A DNA stretch of 64,000 bases from Candidatus Moraniibacteriota bacterium (GCA_046116545.1 CP175956.1:769734-833733); one strand, 5' to 3'. Shown: positions 16,827-35,440, counted from the stretch's first letter. Notes: generated by a model from the sequence alone, not told the origin. A program made the numbers and translations.

Positions 16827-16838
16827 ATTGTTTTTTGA

Positions 16839-17789: not shown

Positions 17790-17841
17790 ACCCTAACCAT
17801 AAATTAAACTGATTATACATTAAATCTCTAGAATTAAAACA

Positions 17842-18798
17842 CTAAAATTCACTATCAACCTCCATTGCCATATTCCTCAATTCTGCAAAAGAATTATCTA
17901 ATGATTCTACATAAATATCAAGATTGAATGAATCAACATTTTCATCCATTGATACCATCTTTTCTATTCTTTTTAATAACTCATCTACCTTTTTAACTTC
18001 TTCAACAATACCTGGAATACTAATTCTATGTTCACCTAGTTGTTCAATATTATATCGCATTCTAATACCATCTTTAAATTCTTCATATATTGAAATCAAC
18101 ATTTTAAAACAAGTTTTTGAATGTATTCTTTCACACTCAAAAGACCATAATTTTTGTATTAAATAACCAGATTGCGCAAGCTTACTTACTAAACTGTCAT
18201 TATTAAACTTTTTTTTATGCTTATTTTCAATTTCATTTATCCTTTTTATAATCCTATCAATTTCTGAACTCAATACATTAGATTGTTTATCAATTATTTC
18301 TATAATATTTACCTTTTTATTAACAAAATCATTATGCGACCATACTTGATATTCTAGAATATTTGTATTCTCAACTGTGCTTAACGATGTATATGTAATA
18401 TCTCCATCTCCATAGGAAATATCTTTACCTCTTTTTTTCTTTGTTTCAGACGGATGTCCAACTGTTTCATTTCTTATATTTCGTATTTCTTTTAATTCTG
18501 AAAAGTCTTCAAATTTTGGCACTTCAATATCAACAGATTCTTCTAGATGCACCATTGAATCCTGTTGTACAATTAGTGCCTGTAATATTCCATATATAGA
18601 TAATTTTGTAGGATGCTTTTGTTCTATATATTCTTCTATTGCTGACTGAGTATCTTGAATATTATCAAAAGCAGACCATAATTTATTCCAGTTGCCTTTA
18701 TCTTTCTTATTCCAAGCTCCCTGCTTACAACAAAAAGATGTATGAATAATCTTTTTTAATTCATCAATTTTTACTCTTAAATTATAATTAGAATCCAT
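17842..18798 (-). CDS. hypothetical protein embedded in the R-M locus
   Basis: 318 aa with no recognisable motif, lying between hsdS and hsdR. Confidence 0.4.
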   Translation of the reverse strand: MDSNYNLRVKIDELKKIIHTSFCCKQGAWNKKDKGNWNKLWSAFDNIQDTQSAIEEYIEQKHPTKLSIYGILQALIVQQDSMVHLEESVDIEVPKFEDFSELKEIRNIRNETVGHPSETKKKRGKDISYGDGDITYTSLSTVENTNILEYQVWSHNDFVNKKVNIIEIIDKQSNVLSSEIDRIIKRINEIENKHKKKFNNDSLVSKLAQSGYLIQKLWSFECERIHSKTCFKMLISIYEEFKDGIRMRYNIEQLGEHRISIPGIVEEVKKVDELLKRIEKMVSMDENVDSFNLDIYVESLDNSFAELRNMAMEVDSEF

Positions 18799-18871
18799 AA
18801 CATTTTTTTAAACAAACAACCTTTGCGTCAATCCTTTTTTCACCTCTTTACTTTGCTGATTTGATTTTGTT

Positions 18872-19057
18872 TTAACCCTTCTTCATCCCTTTTTCTAATT
18901 CTTGTATTAACCTACTATCTGGTGTATCTCCTAATTTAGGCTCATCAACATCAATATTAATGGGTTCCGTCTGTTCAATGTTATTTTCATTATTATCTCC
19001 ATCACTAATACCCTCTATTTGGCCATTATTAGAAACTTCTTTATTATCGGTACTCAT
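18872..19057 (-). CDS. small acidic hypothetical protein
   Basis: 61 aa, Asp/Glu/Asn-rich. Confidence 0.25.
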   Translation of the reverse strand: MSTDNKEVSNNGQIEGISDGDNNENNIEQTEPINIDVDEPKLGDTPDSRLIQELEKGMKKG

Positions 19058-19080
19058 ATAAAATATTGTTTATTAATAAA

Positions 19081-19608
19081 TTAATTTACACAAACTCTAA
19101 AAGTTGGGAAAAGTATAAAAATTATAATGCTCACATAAACAAGTAACATAATGCTAAATGCTATATTCATCCTAATTGCAATCTCTTCAAGCTTACTTCT
19201 ATTAAACTCCTCTGATTCTTTATAAGAATTAACTATTTCAATCTGTATACTTTTTATCATTTTACCTTCATCATACAATGCAATTAATCCGCTAACTGCA
19301 GGAGAGTCATGCTCTTTTCTTTTCCATAACCAAGCCAATATTGTAAATAAAATTATCAAAGCAAATTCCAAAATTAGTAATATCACTTGCTGTTCATTAT
19401 TTTTATTTAAAATATCAACCTGATACAAACCAGCGACTCCAGCAAATGTAAATCCAGTTGCAAGAAATAATAGTTCCGCCTTTTTTGATTGTCCTTGAAT
19501 TTCTTGTCTTCTATTATTATGCTTCTCTCTTGCTATTTCTAGTAAAAGATTTAACTTTTCTTTTTCATCTGTTGTACTTTCTGTAGTCATATTTTCATCA
19601 TTAAACAA
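19081..19608 (-). CDS. hypothetical membrane protein (2-3 predicted TM helices)
   Basis: Hydrophobic stretches LLFLATGFTFAGVAGLY, ILLILEFALIILFTILAWLW and IMLLVYVSIIIFILF. Its stop overlaps the hsdS start. Confidence 0.4.
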   Translation of the reverse strand: MFNDENMTTESTTDEKEKLNLLLEIAREKHNNRRQEIQGQSKKAELLFLATGFTFAGVAGLYQVDILNKNNEQQVILLILEFALIILFTILAWLWKRKEHDSPAVSGLIALYDEGKMIKSIQIEIVNSYKESEEFNRSKLEEIAIRMNIAFSIMLLVYVSIIIFILFPTFRVCVN

Positions 19609-20884
19609 ATAACTTCTGCATCAAGCCTTTTTTCCATTCCTTTACTCCTGTGATTTGATCTTGTTTTAATTGTATCACTTCATCAATAGAACTCAAGAAG
19701 TCTGCAATTTTTTGTTGCTCTAAAAATGATGGAAGATTTATTTTTAAAGTTTTCATATCGGAACCATAGACATGATAAACAGTAACACCAGAAACTAGTC
19801 TCATAATTTTTTTCTTATTAATATTAACCCAATACGCAAAAAAATTATTCAATACATCTTTGCCTCTAATAATAAGAATATCTCCGCCTAAAATAATATC
19901 TTTTTTACTCAAAGCGCTTGCTGTAGCTAAGCCATTTGGAGTTACATCGGATGTCGGCATTAAAATATCATTTTTTTCGCTTAAAAACATTTTTTCTTTC
20001 TCTAAATCAGTTTTTGAAATTATATTTGTTATAACCTCATTATATTTAATGAATAACTCACCATAATGAATACAAGCATTTTCACCATTGCTAATAATAT
20101 CATTTTTTGAAAGTCCCTTACCCTTCATAAAATTTGTAACATCTCCCAACCTCTTTTCCTCCCAATCAGCAAAAGCATTTCTATTCTCATCACGGAAGCG
20201 AATGTTTTGTGAGAAAATTTTTTGCATTATGCCTTTTTTGTATTTTTCCAATTCTTCTTTTTGTTTTTCCAAATTCGTAAGCCACTCATCCGCCTCACCC
20301 AAAAACCCCGCGATTTTTTGCTGCTCTGGAAGTATAGGCATTTTAATGGGCATTTTCATAAAATCAGACTGAATAATATTCATCCTGTCATGTCGCGCTC
20401 CATAATTGGCAATTCTGTACATGTGTCTATGCCATTTTTTAGTTTCAAAATATTTTTCTAAAAAAGACAAATCTCCTTGTTCTGGTTTTAAAACAGTATA
20501 CAACGGAGACATTACACCTTGTTTTAAATTATTTCTCTTTAATGGACCTACTGGAGCATACTTTGAAATTCGTGGATTATACACAAAATCATCAATATCA
20601 ACAATATAATAATTTGTTAAATTATTTTTATTTGCTATGTCTTTATCAAAGTAATCTCTTTGGCTGACAATGCCTTTTATTGCTGAATTAGTAAGAACAA
20701 AATCATATTCATCATTTAAATTTTTATTTGCATTCTTTTCAAAAACATCTTCCAACTCTTCCGCCTCCCAATCACCACTAAAACCACCAAACCGCAAAGT
20801 TGGCACATTTTTTTGTGCTTTTTTCTTTTTATTCCCCGCCAATGCCTGACAAGGTGTTTTTTTAATTTCTTTTGTCTGTGTCAT
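19601..20884 (-). CDS. hsdS: Type I R-M specificity subunit
   Basis: LRFGGFSGDWE and the central conserved ILPEQQKIAGFL repeat motif, with two target-recognition-domain-like halves. The track ORF begins at 20917, but MTQTK at 20884 is the likelier start. Confidence 0.7.
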   Translation of the reverse strand: MTQTKEIKKTPCQALAGNKKKKAQKNVPTLRFGGFSGDWEAEELEDVFEKNANKNLNDEYDFVLTNSAIKGIVSQRDYFDKDIANKNNLTNYYIVDIDDFVYNPRISKYAPVGPLKRNNLKQGVMSPLYTVLKPEQGDLSFLEKYFETKKWHRHMYRIANYGARHDRMNIIQSDFMKMPIKMPILPEQQKIAGFLGEADEWLTNLEKQKEELEKYKKGIMQKIFSQNIRFRDENRNAFADWEEKRLGDVTNFMKGKGLSKNDIISNGENACIHYGELFIKYNEVITNIISKTDLEKEKMFLSEKNDILMPTSDVTPNGLATASALSKKDIILGGDILIIRGKDVLNNFFAYWVNINKKKIMRLVSGVTVYHVYGSDMKTLKINLPSFLEQQKIADFLSSIDEVIQLKQDQITGVKEWKKGLMQKLFV

Positions 20885-20885
20885 A

Positions 20886-21362
20886 TTATTTTTTCTTTTT
20901 TTCACGAATATATTCATTTATAATTACAATTACATATATTGATGTTGCAATCCAAAATCCAAACTTCTCAACAGTATAAATATATATCAAAACTAATACA
21001 CAAATAATTATAAGGAGAACATACAAACCAGTTATAATTCTAATTATCCTTGATGGAGTAGATTTTTGGAAAAAGTATTTGAAAAATCGCTTCCAAAATG
21101 CAATATTTACATTTAAATTATTTTTATAGTCATAAATAAAAAAACCAAGAAAACCCCAAATAGCAATTATCATAGCAACCCAACTATACACTTGTCTGTG
21201 ATCAATCGTCCCCCAACTTTCATTGCCTGTGACAAAAACATCATAATAAGCATTTGCAAATAAAGTTAAAAGCAAACCCAAAAAAGACCCAATCACAATA
21301 CCCCATACAGCATATATTCGATCTTTTTTTTCTTTTTCTTGATTTTGAACTTCTTTTGTCAT
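20886..21362 (-). CDS. hypothetical 4-TM membrane protein between hsdM and hsdS
   Basis: 158 aa with four hydrophobic helices, overlapping gene junctions on both sides. Confidence 0.4.
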   Translation of the reverse strand: MTKEVQNQEKEKKDRIYAVWGIVIGSFLGLLLTLFANAYYDVFVTGNESWGTIDHRQVYSWVAMIIAIWGFLGFFIYDYKNNLNVNIAFWKRFFKYFFQKSTPSRIIRIITGLYVLLIIICVLVLIYIYTVEKFGFWIATSIYVIVIINEYIREKKKK

Positions 21363-21364
21363 AT

Positions 21365-22957
21365 TTAAAATGGTTTATTAATTTCTAATTCATCACAAAA
21401 CTCTGCAATATTTTCTTGCATTTTCTTTTCATCTTTTTGTAATTTTTGTAATTCTCTAGATACTACATCAATATCAATTTGCTCTTCTTCCTCAAATGTA
21501 TCTACATATCTAGGGATATTTAGATTGAAATCGTTTTCTTTTATTTCCTCTAGAGTTGCACAATGCGAATATTTTTCAATTTCTTTTCTGCCTGTATAAG
21601 TTTCAAAAATCTTTTGTAAGTTTTCATCTGTGAGATTATTTTGATTTTTACCTTTTTCAAATTCTTTTGACGCATCTATGAAAAAAATATTATCATCAGT
21701 ATGACGACATTTTTTAAATACCAAAACCGTAGCAGGAATAGAAGTTCCATAAAAAAGATTTGAAGGTAACCCTATAACCGCATCGAGTGAGTTTTGTTTT
21801 TCTATGATGTACTGGCGAATTTTACCCTCAGCTCCACCACGGAAAAGCACACCATGAGGTAATACCACAGCCATTGTGCCATTATCTGCTAAGTGATACA
21901 GCATATGTGTCACAAAACCAAAGTCAGCTTTGTTTTTTGGTGCTAATGCACCATACTGTGTAAATCGTTCATCTTCTGCAAGTACTGGATCATCAGAACC
22001 TTTCCACTTTGCGGAGAAAGGTGGATTAGCCACAAGCGCCTCAGCCTGCAAGTCTTCAAATAAGTCTGTTGTAAGTGTATCACCCTGCTTGATATCAAAA
22101 TTTGCATAATGCACATCATGCAAAAGCATATTCATCCTTGCAAGGTTGTATGTCGTACGATTAAGCTCTTGTCCGTAATAATTATCAACTTTAGTAAAAT
22201 CTTTAACACGAAGAAGTAATGAACCAGATCCACAAGTAGGATCATAGACAGCTTTAATACGCTTTTTATCCTGAGTTACAATCATTGATAAAAGTTGAGA
22301 AACTTGTGCAGGAGTATAAAACTCTCCACCCTTTTTACCAGCACCAGCAGCAAACTTCCCAATTAGATATTCATACGCATCTCCCAACACATCACTCTTT
22401 GCGTCTTTAAGTTGAAAATCAATTTCATCAAGGTGTGAAAGAATATCTGTAATAATTTCATTTTTATCTTTTTCAGTTCGTCCTAGTTTTGCAGAAGTAA
22501 GGTCAACATCTTCAAATAATCCGATAAAGTCATCTTCACTGTCATTTCCCACAGCAGTTTGTTCAATATTATTTAGCACACTCTTGAGATCTTCCAATAT
22601 AAAAGAATCTTCTCCCTCAATCTCTCCACGTCCTTTTTTGACAAGATGTTCAAAGAGTTCAATAGGCTCAAGAAAGAATCCTAAAGAATCCAGTGAACGC
22701 CTGCTAATAACTTGCAACATATCATCATTTTTACCACTAATGAGCGAAGAATACTTAACTTTATCAGTCTTCAAGAGATCATCAGCATACGCCTGCTGTT
22801 TTTCACTAAGATACTTATAAAAAATAAATCCCAAGATATAATTTTTATACTCATCAGCATTCATCTTACCCCGCAATAAATCAGCAATATTCCAAAGTTG
22901 TTTCTCTAATTGTCTCTTATGTTCCGCTGTCATAAATATATTTTTTTTAGCAATCAA
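21365..22957 (-). CDS. hsdM: Type I R-M DNA methyltransferase subunit
   Basis: N6-adenine MTase motif IV LVANPPFS and SAM-binding motif VYDPTCGSGSLL. Confidence 0.85.
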   Translation of the reverse strand: MIAKKNIFMTAEHKRQLEKQLWNIADLLRGKMNADEYKNYILGFIFYKYLSEKQQAYADDLLKTDKVKYSSLISGKNDDMLQVISRRSLDSLGFFLEPIELFEHLVKKGRGEIEGEDSFILEDLKSVLNNIEQTAVGNDSEDDFIGLFEDVDLTSAKLGRTEKDKNEIITDILSHLDEIDFQLKDAKSDVLGDAYEYLIGKFAAGAGKKGGEFYTPAQVSQLLSMIVTQDKKRIKAVYDPTCGSGSLLLRVKDFTKVDNYYGQELNRTTYNLARMNMLLHDVHYANFDIKQGDTLTTDLFEDLQAEALVANPPFSAKWKGSDDPVLAEDERFTQYGALAPKNKADFGFVTHMLYHLADNGTMAVVLPHGVLFRGGAEGKIRQYIIEKQNSLDAVIGLPSNLFYGTSIPATVLVFKKCRHTDDNIFFIDASKEFEKGKNQNNLTDENLQKIFETYTGRKEIEKYSHCATLEEIKENDFNLNIPRYVDTFEEEEQIDIDVVSRELQKLQKDEKKMQENIAEFCDELEINKPF

Positions 22958-23070: not shown

Positions 23071-23229
23071 TTATGCATTTTCTTCTTCAATTTTTTCATT
23101 GATTTTTGTTAATTCTTCATGAACTTTTTTTAATACACTATCTAAATGAATTGTACCTCCACCTCTTGCATACTCCTTAGTGATTTCAACAGTCATTTCC
23201 AATATTTTACGCTCACTATGTTTCCTCAT
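23071..23229 (-). CDS. small hypothetical protein (52 aa), translationally coupled to the upstream dinD-like gene
   Basis: By my translation: MRKHSERKILEMTVEITKEYARGGGTIHLDSVLKKVHEELTKINEKIEEENA. Its ATG overlaps the TGA stop of dinD in an ATGA arrangement. It is below the track's size cutoff. Confidence 0.35.
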   Translation of the reverse strand: MRKHSERKILEMTVEITKEYARGGGTIHLDSVLKKVHEELTKINEKIEEENA

Positions 23230-24047
23230 ATCGACTTGTCACCTCCCTCCAGTTTCTTTTTATCACTTCTGTTCTTCAATAATGTCTTTGCTTTTCCTAT
23301 TCCATCGGTTGTAGGAAGCTCTTCTGGCATTGTGCCACCAAGCTCTTCAATTGTTTTACGAACTTTCTGCCCTACATCATAATGTGTAAGATTTGCATTC
23401 ATCTCATTTTTCACATTCTCTCTACGAAGTTTAGCATCTGCTTGTGTTGTGCGAAATAGATTAGCTGCCAATTCCTCACTGCCCATATGATCAAGTATCT
23501 GTTGTGATTTTTTTAACTTTTTATTTGTTTTTATATCTCCAGAATCCAACCCTCCATACAATCCCTTATATCCATAATTCTGAAATTTGCCATAATTTTC
23601 TACACCTGCATCACTTGCCGCCTCTGCGAGTGATGTATTATGTTTTTTAATTTCATCACGTAATTGTACTCTTTTATTATCTTCTATCAGCTCATCAGTT
23701 TTTTCTTGTCGTCGTGTCTGAATTGCAAAATATGTTTGACCAAGTGCCACGACCTCCTTGCTTGGATCTGAATTTTGAATAATAAGATAACAAGCATATC
23801 TAGAAAGATATACGGTATCAACTGAACGCTCAGCACCAGAACCAATCTTGACCATTTCGTCCACATGGGCAAAATGGGTGTGGATAACTTCTCCACTCTT
23901 CTCACATGCTAATTTAGCCTTTTCGATAACATTCAAAAATTTACTATAATTTGAATAATCCAAAGCTTTTGCAAGATCACGAGAAGACCAAAAATCACTC
24001 CCATACTCATTAACTTGCTTAATTTTTTCAAAAATTACTTGTGTCAT
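23226..24047 (-). CDS. dinD: DNA damage-inducible protein D-like (Bro-N/KilA-N + DinD domains)
   Basis: GQTYFAIQTRRQE, ILDHMGSEELAANLFRTTQ and GGTMPEELPT match what I recall of enterobacterial DinD. It is adjacent to lexA. Confidence 0.55.
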   Translation of the reverse strand: MTQVIFEKIKQVNEYGSDFWSSRDLAKALDYSNYSKFLNVIEKAKLACEKSGEVIHTHFAHVDEMVKIGSGAERSVDTVYLSRYACYLIIQNSDPSKEVVALGQTYFAIQTRRQEKTDELIEDNKRVQLRDEIKKHNTSLAEAASDAGVENYGKFQNYGYKGLYGGLDSGDIKTNKKLKKSQQILDHMGSEELAANLFRTTQADAKLRRENVKNEMNANLTHYDVGQKVRKTIEELGGTMPEELPTTDGIGKAKTLLKNRSDKKKLEGGDKSI

Positions 24048-24104
24048 ATTTGATTTGTATTTTAATTATTAAAAATAGAAGAAATGTCCATCTACATCCC
24101 ACAA

Positions 24105-24764
24105 CTATGATTTCAACACATCAATTACCTTACCATTAACAATTAAATCATCCTCTTCGGTTAAATATATTGGTAAAAATTCTTCTTCAGTTGAACAAGG
24201 GAAAAGACCAATTCTATCCTGTTCTACATATCGCAACAGTTTTATTGTAGCAAGCCCATCGATAACAGCTAGTACAGGTATATTATTGTCATTTATAGAA
24301 GGCTTGTAACCACCATCAACTAGAACAAAGCTTCCATCTTCAATATTATTCTCGCGCACTTTATAATTATTCATAGATTCTCCAGATGCCTGAATTGCAA
24401 AAAGGTTTTTAATATTTTTTTGTCCAACAATACTTTTTGAAACTTTCAATGTTCCCTGCCTATATTGCTCAGCTACAATACTTGCAATTCCACAATTTGC
24501 ACTACCATATACAGGAATATCAACAAATAACATCTTCCCCTGGTCAAGTAACTCTAAAGCTTTTGTATGTGAATTTCTCCGCACGACACCAGCATCTTTC
24601 AAATCATTCAAATATTTATGCACAGTTCTTGGGCTATTCATATCATATCCGCTAGACCGCAATTCGTCTCTAAGTTCCCGAATAGATGGCATTACGCCAT
24701 TCTCTCGGAAAAAACTTTTCAGAGAACTGAGAACTATCTCATGTTTTTTGGTAAGATTTTTCAT
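24105..24764 (-). CDS. lexA: LexA repressor (S24 peptidase)
   Basis: N-terminal winged-HTH and a C-terminal S24 domain with the Ser motif (SGESM) and a Lys region (…VNGKV). Confidence 0.8.
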   Translation of the reverse strand: MKNLTKKHEIVLSSLKSFFRENGVMPSIRELRDELRSSGYDMNSPRTVHKYLNDLKDAGVVRRNSHTKALELLDQGKMLFVDIPVYGSANCGIASIVAEQYRQGTLKVSKSIVGQKNIKNLFAIQASGESMNNYKVRENNIEDGSFVLVDGGYKPSINDNNIPVLAVIDGLATIKLLRYVEQDRIGLFPCSTEEEFLPIYLTEEDDLIVNGKVIDVLKS

Positions 24765-24887: not shown

Positions 24888-25679
24888 CTATTGATATTTA
24901 TCAATCATATTAATCATTTTGATAAGATATTGTCCTGCCATATCCCAATTTACAGGATCTAATGCGTTACCACTCTCCCTCAGTTTACCCTGTGCATCAA
25001 CACTGATATTGTTATGGGATTGCATGACTGGTTCAGATAACTGATATGTCTCTGGACCAAGTCCACCCGCAATACTGATGCCGATATCTGGTAAATCATT
25101 TTGAATTGCTTCAATAAATGGAATAAGTGATGGTGCGTCCATACCGATTCCACGCCCCATACTTTTATCCAAGAGGACACGATGCAAAACTTCATCATAT
25201 GCATATTTACCAAGTCTATCCACAAGTGCACGTGGATTGTTATCAATCTCTTCAAATGCTTGCTTACCGATTTGCAAAATGATTTCTGGATGTATTCCTG
25301 AGTCAGTAATAGCTGCAAAAATCTGATGTCTATCAGGCCAAACTAAATCTAGTTGTAAGGCGTGCATATATTTGCCACCATATATAATTGCCAATCTCAA
25401 ACTTTTCCACAACTCTGGACGTTTTTTACTATCTGCATAATGCAAACAATACATAACATCATCTGCATAATCACCATCAAATATAGATGCGATTACTTCA
25501 TTACGTGGGAATGCATCTGTCCACTTTGTTGGCCATCCATGAAGAGTTTTGTAACTCATCATCACACCAACATGCAATTTGTATTGAAAATTGCCTGGCT
25601 CATGAGAATTAAAGACTTTTGCCATAGCAACTACTTCTTTGACGTCCATAAAATCAGTAATGCCAACATATGGTTGCAT
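24888..25679 (-). CDS. TIM-barrel protein resembling phosphoribosylanthranilate isomerase (TrpF-like)
   Basis: PYVGITDF near the N-terminus (compare KICGIT), and GISIAGGLGPE ... ISVDAQGKLRESG at the C-terminus (compare the TrpF GGL phosphate-binding end). Confidence 0.3.
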   Translation of the reverse strand: MQPYVGITDFMDVKEVVAMAKVFNSHEPGNFQYKLHVGVMMSYKTLHGWPTKWTDAFPRNEVIASIFDGDYADDVMYCLHYADSKKRPELWKSLRLAIIYGGKYMHALQLDLVWPDRHQIFAAITDSGIHPEIILQIGKQAFEEIDNNPRALVDRLGKYAYDEVLHRVLLDKSMGRGIGMDAPSLIPFIEAIQNDLPDIGISIAGGLGPETYQLSEPVMQSHNNISVDAQGKLRESGNALDPVNWDMAGQYLIKMINMIDKYQ

Positions 25680-25837
25680 ATCACTCCTCCACTTTCAAAA
25701 AATGTTAAAAGATATAATATATCTGTTGTTAAAAAAACTATCAAGGTATATTATCACATATTTATATCTTTATCAAACAAAAAATATCCATTTAATGGAT
25801 ATTTTCATAATTAGATATAGCAAAGTGATACACTAAG

Positions 25838-25861
25838 ATTCCTGCCTTCGCAGGAATGACA
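25838..25861. repeat. REP-like palindromic element ATTCCTGCCTTCGCAGGAATGACA (copy 2)
   Basis: Exact copy of 8993-9016. Confidence 0.7.
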
Positions 25862-25905
25862 TAAGATGAAAACATCCAGTGATACTGCTAGTTTTTGAGA
25901 ATAAC

Positions 25906-26131
25906 AAAAAACACCCAACCAATGAGTGTTTTATTTCTAGCAAGTTCCTGAATCAAGTTCAGGATGACATTTACATGTCATAATCTTTTGCGGTTAGTCC
26001 TTATCGATACTATTACCTTTGAGCCGTACATTACAATTATGTATATAAAAGATACATAATCGACCAAAATGGGTTTTAAGAACTTGATGTGACCATCAAC
26101 TCTTTCACCTTTACGCCCTAGAAAGGAGGTG
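25906..26131 (-). repeat. orphan duplicate of the 16S rRNA 3' trailer (terminator hairpin, REP variant, processing-stem half), ending in the last 12 nt of 16S (CACCTCCTTTCT) but lacking the 16S body
   Basis: About 90% identical to 33192-33430, for example tgtcataatcttttgcggttagtcct...gagccgtacattacaattatgt...cgaccaaaatgggttttaagaacttgatgtgaccatcaactcttt. The terminator hairpin ACACCCAACCAATGAGTGT is present in both copies. Confidence 0.7.
25945..25969. repeat. REP-like variant TTCCTGAATCAAGTTCAGGATGACA
   Basis: Stem TCCTGAA/TTCAGGA ending in GGATGACA, related to the 53077/53418 copies. Confidence 0.5.
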
Positions 26132-26245
26132 TTTGGGACCTGACATAACACGCAAAATTGTGCAAAAAACTACTATAACAACTGAGATGAGTTTGATAAA
26201 TTAAATTACTGTTTTATATAGTCATTCTACTGCATAGCCAATAAA
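26122..26245 (+). repeat. repeat element 'P2' copy A: AAAGGAGGTG + conserved 23-codon TTG ORF + ~40 nt tail
   Basis: aaaggaggtgtttgggacctgacataacacgcaaaattgtgcaaaaaactactataacaactgagatgagtttgataaattaaattact is ~95% identical to 31635-31725. The ORF TTG 26133..26204 translates as MGPDITRKIVQKTTITTEMSLIN. Confidence 0.65.
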
Positions 26246-26411
26246 ATGCAAATGCTAATAAAAAACCCTTATTTAAAACTATTATTAAAAATTCTATCCA
26301 CATTGCGTTATCTAATATCTGTGTTAAAATTCGAAGTAATTGAATTATTTATCAATGAAAAACTAAAATATAGCATCTTTTTATTTTAAAAATGTTAATA
26401 TACATTATGAT

Positions 26412-27353
26412 ATGAAAATTAGATTAAACAATTTAAATAACATTATTATTTTACCTGATAAAGTTATTGTTGACACAAATGACAACATTATATCAATTGC
26501 CGATGTCTCTTGTATAAACGTTATAAAAAAACTTTTAGATCAAAAACTAAATGGGGGGAATTCCGTTTTGGTTCTTAATAAAAAACAGTTAAACAATGAA
26601 AGCATCAAATTATTACTTAAAGAAAATATTTTTTTGGATACAGAAGAACATTCCATTAAAGAAGTCCTCCAATTATTTAATTTTTTCAGTAACCCTAATA
26701 TAAATAATATTGAAATACCCTATAAGCAATCATTAGAAATAACAAAATCCGTACACAAAAAAAATATTCCTTGGATTTCTGAAAAAAAACCTACTGTGGC
26801 AAGATATTCTCATAGAGATTTTTCTGACAAAAAAATTACTAAATCATCATTAAAAAAAATTGCAAAAACAAGTTATGGACTCTTATGGCAACAAAAAACT
26901 AGTCCATTTATTTCTCATACCCCCATAGCTTCAGCTGGCGCACTAAATCCTTTAAGGTTATTCTTTATTATTAAGGAACAAGAAATATTTAAAGTAGTTT
27001 ATTTTAATAAAGAATCAAATACTTTTGACTCACATTTTCAACTATCCATACAAGACTTCAAAGATTGTTTAGTTGAAGACTTGCATCCAGGATGTCTAAA
27101 TGCACCTTATTTTGCACTGATCGCAAGCGATTTAAGTTTTATTTGTGCTAAGTATGGATACAGAGGATTACAATATTCAATTTTAGAAGGCGGAGCACTC
27201 TCACATCAACTAAGTGCCTCTATGTTAAAAGAACAAATATATTCAGTTCATTTAGGTGGTTTTTATGAAGAAAGAATACAAAATAAATTAAATTTTCAAA
27301 AATTTTCAAACACCGTTCCTTTATTGCTAATAGCTTTTGGATATAAGAAATAA
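26412..27353 (+). CDS. SagB-type (McbC-like) FMN-dependent dehydrogenase, nitroreductase fold
   Basis: ARYSHRDF (nitroreductase RxSxRxF motif) and TPIASAGALNPLRLFF (compare SagB-type PSAGGLYPLE). Confidence 0.55.
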   Translation: MKIRLNNLNNIIILPDKVIVDTNDNIISIADVSCINVIKKLLDQKLNGGNSVLVLNKKQLNNESIKLLLKENIFLDTEEHSIKEVLQLFNFFSNPNINNIEIPYKQSLEITKSVHKKNIPWISEKKPTVARYSHRDFSDKKITKSSLKKIAKTSYGLLWQQKTSPFISHTPIASAGALNPLRLFFIIKEQEIFKVVYFNKESNTFDSHFQLSIQDFKDCLVEDLHPGCLNAPYFALIASDLSFICAKYGYRGLQYSILEGGALSHQLSASMLKEQIYSVHLGGFYEERIQNKLNFQKFSNTVPLLLIAFGYKK

Positions 27354-27355
27354 CT

Positions 27356-29122
27356 ATGATACTCAAATATACTAACAAACTTAATACTTCTGCATTACTA
27401 ATCATAGAAAATGAAGATAATATATTTTTTCTTTTACCTGAAAAAATAATTATATTTGAAAAAATTGATAATTTCATAGACAGCCTTGAAAAAAATAATA
27501 TTGAAACTATACGAATTTTGAAAAAATATGATTTATTCAATACTAAGAAAAATGATTATATTCTTTTAAATAAATCTAAAAAGCAGTTTGGCAATGAAGT
27601 CTCAAAAAGAAAATGTGATTATTCAAATGAAATACTCTTAGCTTATTATGTTTTTACAAAAAATATTAACGACATAACAAGAAAAATCATTTTATCATCA
27701 TTCTCCAAAAAAAACCCAGAATATAATTATATACTAAAAAATATTTTACAAAAAAATAATCTTATATACGCAAAAATTTCTTTATTTCAAAAAATAACCC
27801 CGCACCTTACTGATTCAAAAAAATATACTTCTAAAATTAACATACCACAGCTATTTTCAACTCAAACCATAAATGATAAAACAAAATTATTTTCTTCAAT
27901 TGGTCCAATTATAAACATTCAAAGGGCAGAACCTCAAAAAAATATTTCTACTTTACAGAGTTATTTAGCCACATATAGAGTTCCTTCTCTAGAAAATTCT
28001 CATATACATGAAAATTATAGCTCAAATGGATATGACTCTAATGAAAATATAGCGCTACTCAAATCCGTTGCAGAAGCTCATGAAAGATTCTCATCAGGAT
28101 ATATAGATAAAAACCAGATAGTCAAATTGGATACAAAAAAATTATTGGATATGGATAGAATTTATAAATATTTAGGAATTTCAAAAAAAAAGTTTTTAAA
28201 CAATGAATATATTTGCATCCCACCTAAATCAAAAACATATCCAACAATTAAGGGTAATGTACTGAATGCTGACCTAGAATGGTATGCTCCAATTGATATA
28301 GTCAAATTTCCATATCGACCAGAATATTTTGATAGATTTACATTTGCAAACTCATCAGGAGTTGCTGCTGGCAAGGATTATGCTGATGCATGCATAAGAG
28401 CACTTTTTGAATACTCGGAAAGACATTTTTTAATGAAACATTGGTTATTTGAAATACCTTTTAAAAAAATAAATAAGACTAGTCTTCCGTTAGATATTCA
28501 AGATTATATTAAATCACTGGAAAAAAAAGACACTGGAAAAATAATTGTTGCTACAATGAATTGTAATATAAACCCTCATATTGTAGCAATGTACATAAAT
28601 AAAGAATCTTGGCCAGCATTTCACATATGTGCATCAGCTGACTCAAATAAAGAAAGCGCTCTTAAAAAGGCACTGGACGAATTAGCTAACACTATTATTT
28701 TTTGTCCACTATTCCGAGAAAAAATAAATTTAGCCCCCGAAGATGTTGTAGGAGCTCGTGAACATTATAGTTTTTATCATGATCCTGATAATTTTAAAAC
28801 CATCGACAATAAAAACCTCCTAACAAAAAAATCTATTTGTTGGACTGATGTCCCAACATCTACAAATATAAACTCGAAATTCACTGATGCAAAATTAAAA
28901 AATTTAGTTCAACAAATGACAACTGAATTTGGTGAAATTACAGCTTTTGATGTAACATCTCCTGAAACAAAAAATTTTTATTTAACTGTCGTAAAAATTA
29001 TAACTGAAAAAGGTATTCCTCTCTGGTTTGGAAATTCTGATCTGCCCCTAAATAAAGAAACTATCAAATTAAAAAATAAACAAATTAAAAATTCATTTAT
29101 CAATATACATCCATTAGGTTAG
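27356..29122 (+). CDS. YcaO-domain protein (TOMM-type cyclodehydratase, with N-terminal extension)
   Basis: FANSSGVAAGKDYADACIRALFEYSERHFLMKHW matches the YcaO ATP-binding core (SxGxAAG...E..ER[DH]). At 588 aa it is consistent with a fused C/D-type protein. Confidence 0.6.
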   Translation: MILKYTNKLNTSALLIIENEDNIFFLLPEKIIIFEKIDNFIDSLEKNNIETIRILKKYDLFNTKKNDYILLNKSKKQFGNEVSKRKCDYSNEILLAYYVFTKNINDITRKIILSSFSKKNPEYNYILKNILQKNNLIYAKISLFQKITPHLTDSKKYTSKINIPQLFSTQTINDKTKLFSSIGPIINIQRAEPQKNISTLQSYLATYRVPSLENSHIHENYSSNGYDSNENIALLKSVAEAHERFSSGYIDKNQIVKLDTKKLLDMDRIYKYLGISKKKFLNNEYICIPPKSKTYPTIKGNVLNADLEWYAPIDIVKFPYRPEYFDRFTFANSSGVAAGKDYADACIRALFEYSERHFLMKHWLFEIPFKKINKTSLPLDIQDYIKSLEKKDTGKIIVATMNCNINPHIVAMYINKESWPAFHICASADSNKESALKKALDELANTIIFCPLFREKINLAPEDVVGAREHYSFYHDPDNFKTIDNKNLLTKKSICWTDVPTSTNINSKFTDAKLKNLVQQMTTEFGEITAFDVTSPETKNFYLTVVKIITEKGIPLWFGNSDLPLNKETIKLKNKQIKNSFINIHPLG

Positions 29123-29134
29123 TCAAACTTAAAT

Positions 29135-29845
29135 TTACGCTTTTGTACAATCACTTACACTTATTTTTTTTGCAATTATCAGCTCACCAGCTGAATAATA
29201 ATTACCTTTCCAAGCTAAATTAAAAGCTGATAAACTTATTACCGTTTCTTTATGATAAGGAAGTCCTGGATCACTGATTAATATTTCATCCTTTTTCGTG
29301 TTCAATCCTACTATTAATATATAATGACCCCCTATTTCTTTACTGGCTTCATCATACAATACAAATGGATTTACACCTGCCATAATGAAAGAATTGTTGT
29401 TATTGTTAATGATTTTTTTTATATCTCGATAACCATCATCTTTCATAACAACACCTGCATCATATGCTAATTTAACAGCTTTATGATAATTATCCATATT
29501 GAAATATTTTTCCAAATATTGTATAGCATCAATTCCCATGATATCAATTCCATGTGTATATATCTGCGCCCAGCTTACTGGCATCGGAATATTCATGATA
29601 ACCTGCATCCCCTCTTTAGCTAAAACATATGCTGCTATTGCTTGAATTGTGTTTTCTTTTATATCTCTCTCCCTGAATAAGAAACTATCTAACTGCACAG
29701 GGTCTTTGTATACAGACTTATTTTTGTAAGCATTGATAATTCCAGCTACGCAGGCAGCTACACAACGACTATTATCTGTCGAGTTTTTTAGAGCAAAATA
29801 ATATTTACTGTCATTTAATTTATTGAACATACCAAGTAGTTCCAT
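29135..29845 (-). CDS. C39-like papain-fold cysteine peptidase
   Basis: DNSRCVAACVAGIINAY (Cys-containing N-terminal motif), GHYILIVG (His), ISDPGL (Asp-Pro), in C39-like order and spacing. Confidence 0.45.
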   Translation of the reverse strand: MELLGMFNKLNDSKYYFALKNSTDNSRCVAACVAGIINAYKNKSVYKDPVQLDSFLFRERDIKENTIQAIAAYVLAKEGMQVIMNIPMPVSWAQIYTHGIDIMGIDAIQYLEKYFNMDNYHKAVKLAYDAGVVMKDDGYRDIKKIINNNNNSFIMAGVNPFVLYDEASKEIGGHYILIVGLNTKKDEILISDPGLPYHKETVISLSAFNLAWKGNYYSAGELIIAKKISVSDCTKA

Positions 29846-31232
29846 CTTTATTATCCTTCAATGTTATCCCCATTTGGAATAATTCTTCCTTTACTTTGTC
29901 CGCTTCAGACCAATTCTTTTTCACTCTATATTTATTTCTTTTTTGTATTTTTTGTTCAATTTCTTCTTTTTTTTCATCAGGAATACTTTGTTCATTAAAA
30001 AGTAAAAATCCAAAAATTGAATCCCAATCTTTAAAAAAAGATATAATATCTATAACATTTTTATCGCTTACTTGATTAGTGTCCATAATCTTATTAACTT
30101 CAGTAATAAACTCATGTACATTAGATATTGCTAGAGCTGTATTTAAGTCATCATTCATTGCCTTAATAATTTTTTGTCTTGTATTTTCAATTAAATGATC
30201 AATTGAATGATTATTATCACGTCCTATTTGTTCTTTTGTTCTTATTATAAAATTTTGGATTCTACCTAACGACCTATCAGCAGACCTTAAACCTTCAAAT
30301 GTAAAATTCAAGTTTTCCCTATAATTACTAGTTAAAATTAAGTATCTAAATGCCATGGGATTAGAAACTTCTTTCAACACATCGTTTAAAACATAAAAAT
30401 TTTTTAAACTTTTTGACATTTTTTTTCCATCTATTTTTAAATGCTCTCGGTGAAGCCAATATTTAACAAATTTTTGACCCGTTGAAGCCTCACTTTGTGC
30501 TATTTCATTTTCATGATGGGGGAAAATCAAATCTACAGCGCCAGTATGAATATCAAAAGTATTCCCTAAATTTTTCATACTCATAGCTGAACATTCTATA
30601 TGCCATCCTGGACGCCCCCTACCAAAAGATGATTGCCAAAAGTTATCACCATCTTTTTTTTGCCATGCCTTCCAAAGCACAAAATCAGATGCATTATCTT
30701 TTTCGTATTCATCTAATTCTATACGTCCACTAGCACCTTCTTTCAACATTCTTTTTTTTAAATTTGATAATTTTCCATAATTTTTGAATTTAGAAATTTC
30801 AAAATACACAGATCCATCGTTAGCTCTATATGCATATCCCTTATCTATCAAGTCTTGTATCAATACAATCATTTCATCAATGTAATCTGTTGCTTTACAG
30901 ATTTTTTTTGGTTTTAATATATTAAGCATATTAAAATCAGCAAATAAAGATTCTGTATAAAAATTTGTATATTCTTCAAGTGTTGTATGTTCTTTTTGTG
31001 AACCTTTTATAGTTTTATCATCAACATCTGTAATATTCATTACATCTATTATTTCATATCCACTATATTGTAAATATCTTTTTAATAAATCTGCAAATAA
31101 ATACGTACTTAAATTTCCTATATGTGCATAATCATATACCGTTGGTCCACAGGAATACATTTTAACAATATTCTTGTTTAATGATTCAAAAACCTCTTTT
31201 TTTCGTGATAGTGTATTATATAATTTAATCAT
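29820..31232 (-). CDS. cysS: cysteinyl-tRNA synthetase
   Basis: YSCGPTVYDYAHIGN (HIGH region) and KMSKSLKNF (KMSKS). Confidence 0.9.
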   Translation of the reverse strand: MIKLYNTLSRKKEVFESLNKNIVKMYSCGPTVYDYAHIGNLSTYLFADLLKRYLQYSGYEIIDVMNITDVDDKTIKGSQKEHTTLEEYTNFYTESLFADFNMLNILKPKKICKATDYIDEMIVLIQDLIDKGYAYRANDGSVYFEISKFKNYGKLSNLKKRMLKEGASGRIELDEYEKDNASDFVLWKAWQKKDGDNFWQSSFGRGRPGWHIECSAMSMKNLGNTFDIHTGAVDLIFPHHENEIAQSEASTGQKFVKYWLHREHLKIDGKKMSKSLKNFYVLNDVLKEVSNPMAFRYLILTSNYRENLNFTFEGLRSADRSLGRIQNFIIRTKEQIGRDNNHSIDHLIENTRQKIIKAMNDDLNTALAISNVHEFITEVNKIMDTNQVSDKNVIDIISFFKDWDSIFGFLLFNEQSIPDEKKEEIEQKIQKRNKYRVKKNWSEADKVKEELFQMGITLKDNKDGTTWYVQ

Positions 31233-31306
31233 TGCTTTAAAAATATATCCAAAAAAGAAATATCACCATAAAGTGATATCTCTATCATCCCTTTGAAAAT
31301 AGAAAT

Positions 31307-31498
31307 CTACTTCAAGATCAATCCTGTACCTGAAGAAGAACTTCCACTACAAAGCATTGCTTTTGATTTTTTTGTAACTATTTGTACCTTTGAATCACTC
31401 TTTTCAGATTTATTTACATCAACTGCTCCTGTACCTGAAGAAGAACTTCCACTACAAAGCATTGCTTTTGATTTTTTTGTAACTATTTGTACCTTCAT
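31307..31498 (-). CDS. small ORF inside a tandem 105-bp duplication; Cys/Ser/Gly-rich repeated peptide (MKVQIVTKKSKAMLCSGSSSSGTG x2)
   Basis: Track ORF with an ATG start. The unit cctgtacctgaagaagaacttccactacaaagcattgcttttgatttttttgtaactatttgtacctt occurs twice, about 105 nt apart. A weak hairpin (ATATCAC/GTGATAT) plus U-tract follows at ~31250-31281, before cysS. Confidence 0.35.
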   Translation of the reverse strand: MKVQIVTKKSKAMLCSGSSSSGTGAVDVNKSEKSDSKVQIVTKKSKAMLCSGSSSSGTGLILK

Positions 31499-31634
31499 AA
31501 TAATATAAGTTATTGATTTATTATATACACTATCGACCTTTAATTTAATTATAGGCTAATTTTATATATCAGTCAATTGGCTCACAGATATATAACTATA
31601 AAAAATCATAATTTTTTATAGCTTACTCACCCCA

Positions 31635-31760
31635 AAGGAGGTGTTTGGGACCTGACATAACACGCAAAATTGTGCAAAAAACTACTGTAACAACTGAGAA
31701 AAGTTTGATAAATTAAATTACTACTTTACACATTTATTCTACTGCATATACCGTAAGCTG
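31635..31760 (+). repeat. repeat element 'P2' copy B (AAAGGAGGTG + 23-codon TTG ORF 31646..31717: MGPDITRKIVQKTTVTTEKSLIN)
   Basis: See copy A. It lies between the terminator of the 408-aa gene and the tandem-repeat ORF. Confidence 0.65.
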
Positions 31761-31774
31761 TAAATGAAAAATTA

Positions 31775-31807
31775 AAAGATCTACAAAATATTATTATGTA
31801 GATCTTT
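31775..31807 (-). terminator. rho-independent terminator after the 408-aa gene
   Basis: Perfect 11-bp stem AAAGATCTACA/TGTAGATCTTT, with an A-run on the + strand side (a U-tract on the minus transcript). Confidence 0.55.
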
Positions 31808-31826: not shown

Positions 31827-33053
31827 TTAAACCAAATTACTCTTCCCTGCTAATGGCAAAGAACAATTCTCTAACCTATCCTTATTAACAAGACATGGCT
31901 GTATCCAAGTTTTTGGAGCATTTACAGATCCATAACTTCCCCATGCCTTACGCCAATGACCTCTACGCCAATGAACACTTTTTTCACGACTAACACGAGT
32001 TTTATGTATTTCTGATACAATCTCCACACTTTTCTCATACAAATCACTGTCTGCTAAAGTTATATCGAAAATATCATCAGGACATGTCACCATAGCACAC
32101 TCATTAGTCTCAAGGTGACTATTTCTTTTTTTATTGCTGTCATGATCAGAAAAATTACCCATGGACAAAGATTCCATGTACATACACGTACTCAATACAA
32201 TATGTTGAGCTTTGTCACATGCAGAATACATCATGTAAATATCCTCTTCCTCCATTTTTTGTGTAAGATCCTTTACAGTATTAAAACCAGCAACCTCTAA
32301 CCGTTTAGTAAATTTGCTCTGATCAGCCTCAAGAGACTGTGATACAGGATCTGTGAGGATATCTCCTTTATAACCTCTTGTAGTGACATGAAATTCATCA
32401 AGTATTCCTTCAGTTAAAAGGAGCAACTTTTTTTTAATCTTTTCAACACTTATTCTGCCTTTTTTGACAGCTTTAGAAATTTTTTGTTTATCAAGAGATT
32501 TATAATCACAGAGAGTCCTAGGAAAAAGTATAAAATGTTTCATTTCCATACGATCTCTTCTGTCAATAAATCCACCAACCTCACTAACTAAAATGATATC
32601 ATATTCCTTATCACGTGCTCCAATAATCGGATCATCCAGAGTTAATACAAATGACTTGAATGGCCATTTAATATCTTGCCAAGTAAATCCATCTAAAGAA
32701 GTTGCGCTCAACAGCGTTTGCACATTTGATGTTAGTGACAGTGTTTTTCTTGAATGTTTATTCCATGCAAATAAATTCATCGGTAACGGACCGACATTCC
32801 GTAAAACACCTGCCGATAATTCATATGATCCTGTAAATTTATCATAATCATAATCACCATCAACAGCATTTTTTAAGATATGTTGTCGAAATTCCTTATA
32901 ATGCTTAACTGGCCCCTGAAAATCAGGCTTTCTTGAGTTTTTATATTTCTTGTTTCTTAGACCAGCAATTGTGAACTGCTGCACTAAAAAACAAACATCT
33001 TCCCATAAAGCCACTGCTTTATTTAACCTATCTGAAACATGAATCTTATCCAT
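31827..33053 (-). CDS. hypothetical protein (408 aa) between the 16S trailer and the P2 repeat
   Basis: Long ORF with no recognisable motif and a basic, Trp-rich C-terminus (HWRRGHWRKAWG). Confidence 0.45.
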   Translation of the reverse strand: MDKIHVSDRLNKAVALWEDVCFLVQQFTIAGLRNKKYKNSRKPDFQGPVKHYKEFRQHILKNAVDGDYDYDKFTGSYELSAGVLRNVGPLPMNLFAWNKHSRKTLSLTSNVQTLLSATSLDGFTWQDIKWPFKSFVLTLDDPIIGARDKEYDIILVSEVGGFIDRRDRMEMKHFILFPRTLCDYKSLDKQKISKAVKKGRISVEKIKKKLLLLTEGILDEFHVTTRGYKGDILTDPVSQSLEADQSKFTKRLEVAGFNTVKDLTQKMEEEDIYMMYSACDKAQHIVLSTCMYMESLSMGNFSDHDSNKKRNSHLETNECAMVTCPDDIFDITLADSDLYEKSVEIVSEIHKTRVSREKSVHWRRGHWRKAWGSYGSVNAPKTWIQPCLVNKDRLENCSLPLAGKSNLV

Positions 33054-33191
33054 GAAGTCCTCCTCTGTATATGTAATTTTTAAGAAACTAAGTGTAAAAT
33101 AATATTATTATTTCTAATTCAAACTACTAAAAATAACATTGTATAATACACTATTTTTCTTAAATTGTCAAGGTCACTCTCAAAACAAAAA

Positions 33192-33210
33192 ACACCCAAC
33201 CAATGAGTGT
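33192..33210 (-). terminator. 16S rRNA transcription terminator
   Basis: On the minus transcript: ACACUCA-uugg-UUGGGUGU (contains a G-U pair) followed by UUUUUUG. The same hairpin is present in the orphan trailer copy. Confidence 0.55.
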
Positions 33211-33248
33211 CTTTAAATTCTAACAAGTTTACGTAATAACACACTAAG

Positions 33249-33272
33249 ATTCCTGCCTTCGCAGGAATGACA
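33249..33272. repeat. REP-like palindromic element ATTCCTGCCTTCGCAGGAATGACA (copy 3), in the 16S trailer
   Basis: Exact copy. Confidence 0.7.
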
Positions 33273-33421
33273 TTTGTGTCATAATCTTTTGCGGTTAGTC
33301 CTTTCGATACTATTACCTTTGAGCCGTACATTACAATTATGTGTATAAAAGACACATAATCGACCAAAATGGGTTTTAAGAACTTGATGTGACCATCAAC
33401 TCTTTACACCTTTACTCCCTA

Positions 33422-34914
<1,493 letters not shown>

Positions 34915-35440
34915 AAACGATATCTTACCCGAAAAAGGTAAGACCATCTCTGCTCGAATCAACATTTAACGAGATGTATTGCGATGAACCGTAGTTCATC
35001 TAATTTGACTAGACTCAAAGATTAATAGATCGGATTGTTATTACATATAAATATGTAATAACGGTTTGTTGTTCCAACTTAATAAAAAGTTCATACAACT
35101 TTTAAGGACTAACCACAAAAAATTATGAACTTCATATTTCTTTATGATTGGTATATTTGCTAGTTGTCTTCAAATACTGTTACAAAAGTATTTGATTACA
35201 ATATATTATATTTTTAAAGTTCTTGCTCTCACTTTCTCTATCGAGAAAGAAAAACACATCTCTAGAAACTTTATCATACAAATAAAATTTTGTCCAGAGA
35301 TGTATTATTCTTTCATTCAATTCATTACGAATGGAGTTAACAATACTTCCGTTACTCATGTCTCTTCTTTTATTAACACTAAAGCCTATTATACATGTAA
35401 AAAAAATACTGTCAAGCTTTTTGCTTTGTGCATAGAAAAA

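Follow-up and report, generated by a model that had tools for sequence, protein, structure and literature searches.

Clusters for linear azol(in)e-containing peptides (LAPs), also called thiazole/oxazole-modified microcins (TOMMs), in which a YcaO protein is accompanied by a nitroreductase and a peptidase, have been reported from at least 93 genomes of the Candidate Phyla Radiation (CPR), including 51 from Parcubacteria (Sharrar 2020, mBio, PMC7298704). Canonical azoline-forming YcaO proteins end in a PxPxP motif, and the terminal Pro is inserted into the active site (PMC12338566, PMC6395948). Here we describe a candidate cluster of this class, built around a cysteinyl-tRNA synthetase (CysRS) gene, in a 64,000-nt stretch of DNA (GCA_046116545.1 CP175956.1:769734-833733). 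This stretch is referred to as the window, and coordinates given without a locus name are counted from its first nucleotide. The source is a metagenome-assembled genome (MAG) of Candidatus Moraniibacteriota with a contig of 1.29 Mb, so the “CPR-like” genome proposed by an initial annotation, which was made from the sequence alone, was correctly recognized.

The same annotation described a TOMM/LAP-type enzyme set consisting of a SagB-like dehydrogenase, a YcaO protein and a C39-like peptidase, and this is borne out by hidden Markov models (HMMs), alignments of catalytic residues, fold comparison and co-location in six loci. We estimate a probability of roughly 80% that these enzymes belong to a five-gene LAP/TOMM cluster arranged around cysS, a reading that was derived from sequence throughout. 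What had been a set of enzymes without a substrate can now be treated as a five-gene unit with a defined precursor.

Enzymes and precursor peptide

Three open reading frames (ORFs) were found where the enzymes had been placed: the gene for a predicted SagB-type azoline dehydrogenase dependent on flavin mononucleotide (FMN) at 26412–27353 (+ strand, 313 amino acids), the gene for a predicted YcaO cyclodehydratase at 27356–29122 (+ strand, 588 amino acids) and the gene for a stand-alone C39-fold cysteine peptidase at 29135–29845 (− strand, 236 amino acids). The motifs quoted for them were located at amino acids 131 (RYSHRDF) and 173 (ASAGALNPL) of the dehydrogenase and at amino acids 332–357 (NSSGVAAG...FEYSERH) of the YcaO protein. 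Judged by alignment, each of the three retains the catalytic residues of its characterized homologs.

The YcaO protein matches PF02624 with 75.4 bits (cutoff 25.7) over amino acids 224–549, covering nearly the entire model, and a domain of ~210 amino acids precedes this region. Its best NCBIfam match is TIGR03604, the SagD family, with 91.5 bits (under the cutoff of 219.25); TIGR03266 (30.6 bits) and TIGR00702 (25.1 bits) are far weaker. When a profile of 11 YcaO clade members was compared with the PDB, the cyanobactin heterocyclases TruD, MusD and LynD were matched with E ~1e-22, the YcaO protein of M. jannaschii came fourth and McbD followed. The CEAxERYS motif of TruD, LynD and MusD is matched by residues E240, E243 and R244, while S333, E352, E355 and R356, which include an ExxER motif, align with McbD residues T148, E167, E170 and R171, whose roles were established by mutagenesis (PMC6395948). 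E243, R244, E352 and R356 are invariant in 11 of 11 clade members, and E240, S333 and E355 are kept in at least 90% of them. The Glu residues expected to bind ATP and Mg, and the Ser/Thr position in the beta-turn of the active site, were thereby aligned with counterparts in characterized homologs.

For the dehydrogenase, PF00881 gives 25.2 bits, marginally over its cutoff of 23.5, and TIGR03605 gives 31.6 bits, under its cutoff of 78.4. The profile of the dehydrogenase clade matches the SagB-type structure 3eo7 (6e-20), the thiazoline oxidase BmdC (2e-17) and McbC (5e-8) in the PDB. K247-Y248 aligns with a KY pair in BmdC and with K201-Y202 of McbC, the latter being the catalytic pair of that enzyme (PMC6395948). 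Invariant in six of six clade members are R131, R135, S174-A175-G176, K247, Y248 and G249, and ~125 amino acids precede the catalytic domain. The sagB-like and ycaO genes are separated by 2 nt in the window; they overlap in the related loci L001, L002/L003, L008, L010, L011 and L012.

The peptidase reaches 24.1 bits with PF03412, marginally over the cutoff of 22 and through its C-terminal half only, and agrees with a papain-like C39 fold. C28 (in NSRCxAxC), H174 (GHY) and D192 (SDPG) are invariant in all seven orthologs, and the segment containing His and Asp aligns with ComA PEP; C28 would be the catalytic Cys, as assigned by motif position. At 236 amino acids the protein stands alone, with no ABC fusion. 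Its gene, which has the locus tag ACKUBY_04010, is convergent with ycaO, the two stop codons lying 12 nt apart, and shares its first 26 nt with the end of cysS.

The statement in the initial annotation that no textbook precursor is adjacent did not stand. On the far side of cysS, ~1.5 kb beyond the region covered by the initial annotation, an ORF at 31307–31498 (− strand) encodes a peptide of 63 amino acids with the sequence MKVQIVTKKSKAMLCSGSSSSGTG-AVDVNKSEKSDS-KVQIVTKKSKAMLCSGSSSSGTG-LILK, so that a precursor with a Cys/Ser/Thr-rich core is co-located with the YcaO gene. It contains two identical units of 23 amino acids, KVQIVTKKSKAMLCSGSSSSGTG, which correspond to a perfect 69-nt tandem duplication (D3; 31322–31390 and 31427–31495), and the core motifs are encoded at 31436–31456 and 31331–31351. 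Another ORF, of 47 amino acids at 26246–26389, is not rich in Cys or Ser. The precursor gene has the locus tag ACKUBY_04020. Orthologs of the precursor occupy the equivalent position in L001, L002/L003, L004 and L006; the L004 ortholog has a single unit, and those of L001, L002 and L006 have two. The alignable parts of the two units are also identical in the L002 precursor (4500–4691), and the units of L001 have diverged; either unit number varies by recent duplication or gene conversion keeps the units identical. Each unit has one Cys codon in most loci and two in L006 and in one L001 unit.

The 63-amino-acid ORF is a real protein-coding gene under selection at the amino acid level. Codon changes between loci are synonymous in 54% of cases in the precursor frame versus 0–31% in the other five frames, and Ser codons alternate between AGY and TCN among loci. 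The pattern C[SN][GS][GSD][SAG]S[SC] was matched 17 times in a six-frame search of 187 kb (0.037 matches expected), every time within a precursor ORF. A word-indexed search of 5.8 billion proteins returned no such precursor peptide outside these loci. About eight residues before the Cys, the sequence [IV]xV[ILV][TS][KR] is common to the precursors from CPR and from high-GC loci (see below), and it is likely to be a recognition sequence.

The conserved unit and its relatives

Six CPR loci were counted (the window, L001, L002/L003, L004, L006/L007 and L008), and the order precursor > cysS > peptidase, convergent with sagB > ycaO, is kept in all six. Note that the L008 sequence ends within cysS, so the position of the small ORF is covered in five of them. 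The flanks differ from locus to locus, with 16S rRNA in the window, rpoD in L002, kinases in L004 and tyrS in L008. The tyrS gene of L008 (4616–5854, + strand) lies on the other side of the unit from cysS, which places the unit between two aminoacyl-tRNA synthetase (aaRS) genes. The trio of enzymes is thus co-located in relatives, and the small ORF that co-occurs with it is the precursor.

The family is small. An exhaustive HMMER search of 1.84 billion representative proteins gave only 15 below 1e-30. Word-indexed protein searches gave four YcaO, seven peptidase and four precursor sequences, so few that the family can be considered genuinely rare; the outgroup YcaO proteins were reached through the HMMER search, beyond the word-indexed results. 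A scan of a genome-contig collection matched the L004 genome only, and metagenomes scanned twice, first with a YcaO pattern and then with a peptidase pattern, gave no match.

Bearing on the link between enzymes and precursor are the second-closest YcaO proteins, P0017 and P0018 (279 and 266 bits, ~550 amino acids, also ending in HPLG). Their loci, L009 and L010, are high in GC (59–62%) and resemble conjugative elements, with neighbors encoding a relaxase, a TrwB-type coupling protein, ParAB and toxin-antitoxin pairs. Neither cysS nor a C39 peptidase gene is present in L009 or L010. Directly upstream of the sagB-like and ycaO genes, and co-directional with them, lies an ORF in which LCSGGSSS(S/A)P occurs two to three times (core ...IQVLTKQYRALLCSGGSSSSPAVKPLVCSGGSSSAPSLKA in L009 and ...IEVITRASMDMRANLCSGGSSSAPSIRLLCSGGSSSAPAVRGLCSGGSSSAPQMRDLAEAA in L010). 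Since the LCSG[GS]SSS core is shared where cysS is absent, the precursor belongs to the enzymes and not to cysS. A conserved ORF of ~120 amino acids with a weak DUF6176 match is convergent with ycaO in both loci (L009 9687–10064 and L010 9655–10008, both − strand), in the place held by the C39 peptidase in CPR loci; it could encode an immunity or accessory protein.

A third tier of YcaO proteins, from Parcubacteria, is 630–650 amino acids long and shares the N-terminal domain. The operons of this tier are classical, in the order Cys-rich precursor > methyltransferase > nitroreductase > YcaO, which argues that the YcaO clade as a whole is ordinary LAP machinery. As judged from these sequences, the tandem LCSGxSSS precursor defines an inner family of the clade.

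The layout between the precursor and cysS suggests how the unit could be expressed. A promoter-like site, TTGACT-17-TATAAT (31548–31576, − strand), lies ~50 nt upstream of the precursor gene; it agrees with the consensus at 11 of 12 positions and is tied for best among the matches of the region, but it is a consensus match only, and the region has no more promoter-like sites in total than its shuffles do. The TTGACT...TATAAT/TATACT pattern is common to the window, L001 and L006. On the − strand, the interval from the precursor start to that of cysS contains no promoter-like site. A terminator-like hairpin with a 12-bp stem and a T-run (31256–31283, − strand; fold z = −4.0) separates the precursor gene from cysS and begins 24 nt after the precursor stop codon. 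A hairpin with a U-tract is present in five of the five loci that include the spacer (z = −3.7 to −5.4); the sequences differ, so it is the structure and not the sequence that is conserved. The terminator is probably leaky. A strong precursor gene with a leaky terminator behind it is a common layout in operons for peptides that are ribosomally synthesized and then modified post-translationally (RiPPs).

We propose the following scheme. The precursor would be transcribed from its own promoter to give abundant mRNA, and the leaky terminator would let a fraction of transcripts continue, so that read-through supplies both cysS and the peptidase gene that overlaps it. Each precursor unit would consist of the short recognition stretch [IV]xV[ILV][TS][KR] and a core, LCSGSSSSGTG. 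The substrate would presumably be bound by the N-terminal domain (~210 amino acids) of YcaO or by the N-terminal ~125 amino acids of the dehydrogenase, either of which would replace a separate E1-like C protein. With ATP, YcaO would form azolines by cyclodehydration of the invariant Cys and, probably, of some following Ser and Thr residues; the SagB-type flavoprotein would then oxidize these to azoles by means of its Lys-Tyr pair. The stand-alone C39-fold peptidase would trim the product, possibly by cutting behind the terminal GTG of each unit, and cysS would most likely be the organism's ordinary CysRS gene, locked inside the operon.

Several observations weigh against this scheme. The matches to TIGR03604 and TIGR03605 fall far short of the curated cutoffs, although these weak HMM scores are backed by the independent profile matches in the PDB. 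The YcaO protein ends in ...IHPLG; HPxG is invariant in 11 of 11 clade members and, by comparison of C-termini, is a conserved variant and not the canonical PxPxP. No separate gene for an E1-like C protein or an Ocin-ThiF-like F protein was found in any locus. When the isolated N-terminal regions of YcaO and the dehydrogenase were searched with Pfam at E ≤ 10, neither PqqD, nor a recognizable RiPP recognition element (RRE), nor any other domain was matched. An AlphaFold2 model of YcaO made from a four-sequence alignment has a predicted local distance difference test (pLDDT) score of 42, too poor to be fold evidence. It contains a possible beta-beta-beta-alpha-alpha element at residues 15–57, and with it Foldseek placed TruD and McbD at the top with E = 0.03–0.1, none of which is significant. 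The precursor leader, at only ~14 amino acids, is unusually short, and the precursor units end in GTG and not in a double-Gly site (GG/GA/GS). GTG closes the units only in loci that bear the peptidase, those of L009 and L010 ending in (A/S)P, and this restriction is a weak hint of cleavage after GTG. No exporter or obvious immunity gene lies adjacent to the cluster. The absence of an ABC exporter, already remarked in the initial annotation, applies to all of the larger ORFs scanned in the window, among which the transporter closest to the cluster is a major facilitator superfamily (MFS) protein ~13 kb away. Lastly, the sagB-like and ycaO genes of L004 (7996–10741) are both split by frameshifts or stop codons, the break in ycaO falling exactly at the boundary between the N-terminal and YcaO domains, and the sagB-like gene of L009 (7013–8017) is frameshifted. 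These disruptions may reflect cluster decay in some lineages or assembly error.

The embedded cysS gene and alternative readings

The cysS gene (29820–31232, − strand, 470 amino acids) lies between the precursor and peptidase genes, and it overlaps or abuts the latter in every locus (−29 to +9 nt). Its product matches solved CysRS structures over the full length (E = 2e-109) and contains HIGN (amino acid 37), KMSKS (271) and the zinc-site motifs CGPT/HIECS/HHENE. CysRS orthologs are 57–69% identical across the CPR loci. The order of divergence between loci is the same for all four proteins, as would be expected if the unit had been co-inherited across deep lineages. Retention of an essential aaRS gene in such a unit across deep divergence is unusual. 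The most economical reading, and the most likely one, makes cysS a housekeeping gene caught between the parts of a cluster that was acquired.

Resistant copies of aaRS genes can be part of RiPP clusters, and this supplies a specific target hypothesis for the present cluster that extends the LAP reading. It follows the logic of the clusters for tiarins, which are trifolitoxin-like aaRS inhibitors, and for other inhibitors of these enzymes. The cluster would make a CysRS inhibitor, and the embedded cysS would be a resistant, self-protecting copy that is inherited and expressed together with the precursor. We regard this as improbable, yet it fares best among the alternatives. It would account for the position of cysS between precursor and peptidase in six CPR loci despite differing flanks, for the apparent dependence of its expression on read-through from the precursor promoter, for the overlapping or abutting peptidase gene and for the duplicated sequence that brackets the block including cysS, as if it had been moved whole. 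There is also a precedent in the tiarins, for which an aaRS encoded in the biosynthetic gene cluster was proposed to be a resistant copy, with a specificity that matches the key core residue (10.64898/2025.12.02.691738). Cys is the sole invariant core residue here other than Gly, Ser and Thr; however, any LAP core should hold a conserved Cys, so the match between Cys and CysRS is weak evidence. The sister clusters L009 and L010 have the same core and no aaRS gene, the CysRS is fully canonical in appearance, a CPR genome of 1.29 Mb would be unusual in having a second cysS, and the L008 unit sits beside tyrS in what looks like a housekeeping neighborhood. The TfxB+TfxC pair and the conserved Gln that define tiarins are absent. 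Slightly less probable again is the full form of this proposal, in which cysS would be dedicated to self-resistance or be a dedicated target, and the ultra-small CPR bacterium would use an azole-containing Trojan-horse inhibitor of CysRS against its host or competitors; with the invariant core Cys in its warhead, this product would be the LAP-type equivalent of a tiarin. The main text of the tiarin paper mentions neither CysRS nor CPR members (10.64898/2025.12.02.691738).

A very improbable reading takes the small ORF for an attenuator or leader peptide that regulates cysS, with no relation to the YcaO, SagB-like and peptidase proteins, which would act on some other substrate. It draws on the Cys codons of the ORF, the terminator hairpin directly upstream of cysS and the lack of a promoter-like site belonging to cysS itself. 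There are only one to two Cys codons per unit, however, and selection at the amino acid level extends across 23 residues, well beyond codon content. A ribosome terminating at the stop codon would leave the hairpin uncovered, since the two are 24 nt apart. When searched with Rfam at the gathering threshold, the entire window gave 16S rRNA only, with no T-box or riboswitch upstream of cysS. The same core occurs beside the YcaO/SagB pairs of L009 and L010, where cysS is absent.

The suggestion in the initial annotation that YcaO might instead act on a protein, taken here to include thioamidation or other activation of a ribosomal protein, CysRS or another enzyme, is the least probable of all: an automatic Joint Genome Institute (JGI) name for the YcaO protein that begins “ribosomal protein S1...”, the weak matches to TIGR03266 (McrA thioamidation, 30.6 bits) and TIGR00702, the fourth-best PDB match to M. 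jannaschii YcaO and the lack of a classical C or F partner protein are outweighed by a best family match to SagD/TOMM, closest structural relatives among the cyanobactin heterocyclases, the absence of any TfuA gene found, a translationally coupled dehydrogenase with an intact Lys-Tyr pair and a cognate Cys/Ser-rich peptide that accompanies the YcaO clade across phyla in unrelated genomic contexts, including beside the outgroup pairs.

Genomic setting and comparison with known systems

The LAP cluster lies in a repeat-bounded block beside the 16S gene, as had been annotated. A complete 16S rRNA gene is found at 33423–34915 (− strand). Its true 3' end and ~230 nt of spacer are duplicated just upstream of the sagB-like gene (duplicate at 25776–26131, original at 33184–33432), with 93–100% identity in most pieces (D2, D4–D6 and D8). 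The 175-nt repeat D1 stands in place of the 16S body in this duplicate; its first copy (26111–26285) lies ~127 nt upstream of the sagB-like gene, and the second (31623–31797, 80% identical) lies ~125 nt upstream of the precursor gene. On the − strand, D1 copy 1 terminates in the 16S-3'-end-like CACCTCCTTT. Sequence that ends in this 16S 3' terminus on the − strand is present in three copies (25776–26131, 31615–31797 and 33184–33432), and a D1 23-mer occurs just twice in the window, at D1 copy 1 and at 31634–31656. The copies of the spacer duplicate bracket a 7.3-kb block that contains the cluster and ORF408, and this block appears to have arisen at the 16S 3' end by duplicative insertion or by integration of the Campbell type. 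Nearly all genes in the window are on the − strand; the very few exceptions on the + strand include the sagB-like and ycaO genes, which fits insertion against the prevailing gene orientation. The GC content of the cluster region is 26–30%.

ORF408 (31827–33053) and ORF263 (24888–25679) were considered as cluster members and rejected; neither has a significant Pfam, NCBIfam or PHROGs match, and neither is conserved beside the unit elsewhere. The window contains no 23S rRNA, 5S rRNA or tRNA genes, so the rRNA genes are unlinked here at the scale of the 64 kb around the complete 16S gene. GC skew on the + strand is strongly and uniformly negative across 1–64000. A serS gene (38643–39968, − strand) is located ~7 kb past the cluster. 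On the other side lies a complete type I restriction-modification system (14028–22957, − strand; HsdR 14028–16826, HsdS 19601–20917, HsdM 21365–22957), among whose genes are unannotated ORFs and one for an SDH-type ClpP-like protease (16839–17789). Between this system and the cluster, a Bro-N/anti-repressor-like protein (23226–24764, − strand; phrog_8036, E = 1e-93) adjoins a LexA/S24-type repressor; these phage-like regulatory genes suggest a mobile or island character for this flank of the cluster.

The genomes of CPR bacteria are minimal and the cells probably live in attachment to other microbes, and a secondary-metabolite cluster retained under such a lifestyle would be a clue to interaction with a host or competitors. 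The related enzymes on mobile elements of distant high-GC bacteria, which share the LCSG[GS]SSS core, suggest horizontal spread and a conserved bioactive scaffold. Goadsporin, whose core probably contains ...ILCSGG... and whose immunity gene is a paralog of its target, should be considered a lead only.

The initial annotation had proposed an undescribed minimal TOMM system. This cannot be maintained for the class, since 110 CPR LAP clusters have been published (PMC7298704), and may hold for this particular family, which appears to be undescribed. The features that appear to be new are a rare family with a tandem multi-core precursor, a core that is found across phyla, a HPxG YcaO clade without a recognizable partner and the conserved embedding of cysS. 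If cysS is a mere passenger, the locus is an ordinary, if rare, case of a class already on record for CPR.

As in those CPR clusters (PMC7298704), a YcaO gene is found here with an adjoining gene for a nitroreductase-type dehydrogenase, a peptidase gene and a small Cys/Ser-rich precursor. The present family differs from them in its tandem two-unit precursor, in the cysS gene that is placed between precursor and enzymes as a conserved internal member, and in its very small size (15 proteins below 1e-30). Tiarin clusters also combine a SagB-type FMN dehydrogenase, with YcaO optional, and an aaRS gene that matches a conserved core residue, which here would be Cys. They are defined by TfxB+TfxC, a pair of FMN dehydrogenases bearing RREs (10.64898/2025.12.02.691738), whereas one dehydrogenase is present here, and the precursor alignment contains no conserved Gln.

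Among C39-fold enzymes, the peptidase differs from PCAT1, ComA PEP and LahT150 in being stand-alone and cytoplasmic-looking, with ~90 extra residues and no ABC fusion. Substrates of double-glycine C39 peptidases have GG, GA or GS and a long amphipathic leader, whereas the presumed substrate here has GTG.

Microcin B17 (McbBCD/McbA) shares with this cluster an ATP-dependent YcaO protein, an FMN dehydrogenase with a Lys-Tyr pair and a core rich in Gly, Ser and Cys, and the Cys-Ser pair of the present core could become a fused bis-heterocycle, like the one found in that peptide. The cluster differs in having no McbB-type E1-like scaffold, no McbEFG export and immunity genes and a multi-core precursor. 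McbD has a C-terminal PxP (Pro394, Pro396), in contrast to the HPLG and the extra N-terminal domain of ~210 amino acids found here.

The closest solved YcaO domains are those of the cyanobactin enzymes TruD, LynD and MusD, single-polypeptide cyclodehydratases with N-terminal non-catalytic domains, as here. Their N-terminal regions comprise ~315 amino acids, compared with ~210 here, and no similarity of the latter to the E1-like/RRE domains of those enzymes was detectable by sequence. In place of the PatA and PatG subtilisin-type proteases and macrocyclase of cyanobactin clusters, this locus has the C39-fold peptidase. Cyanobactin precursors such as PatE carry repeated core cassettes, each with a flanking recognition sequence, and the tandem precursor described here appears to be organized in the same way.

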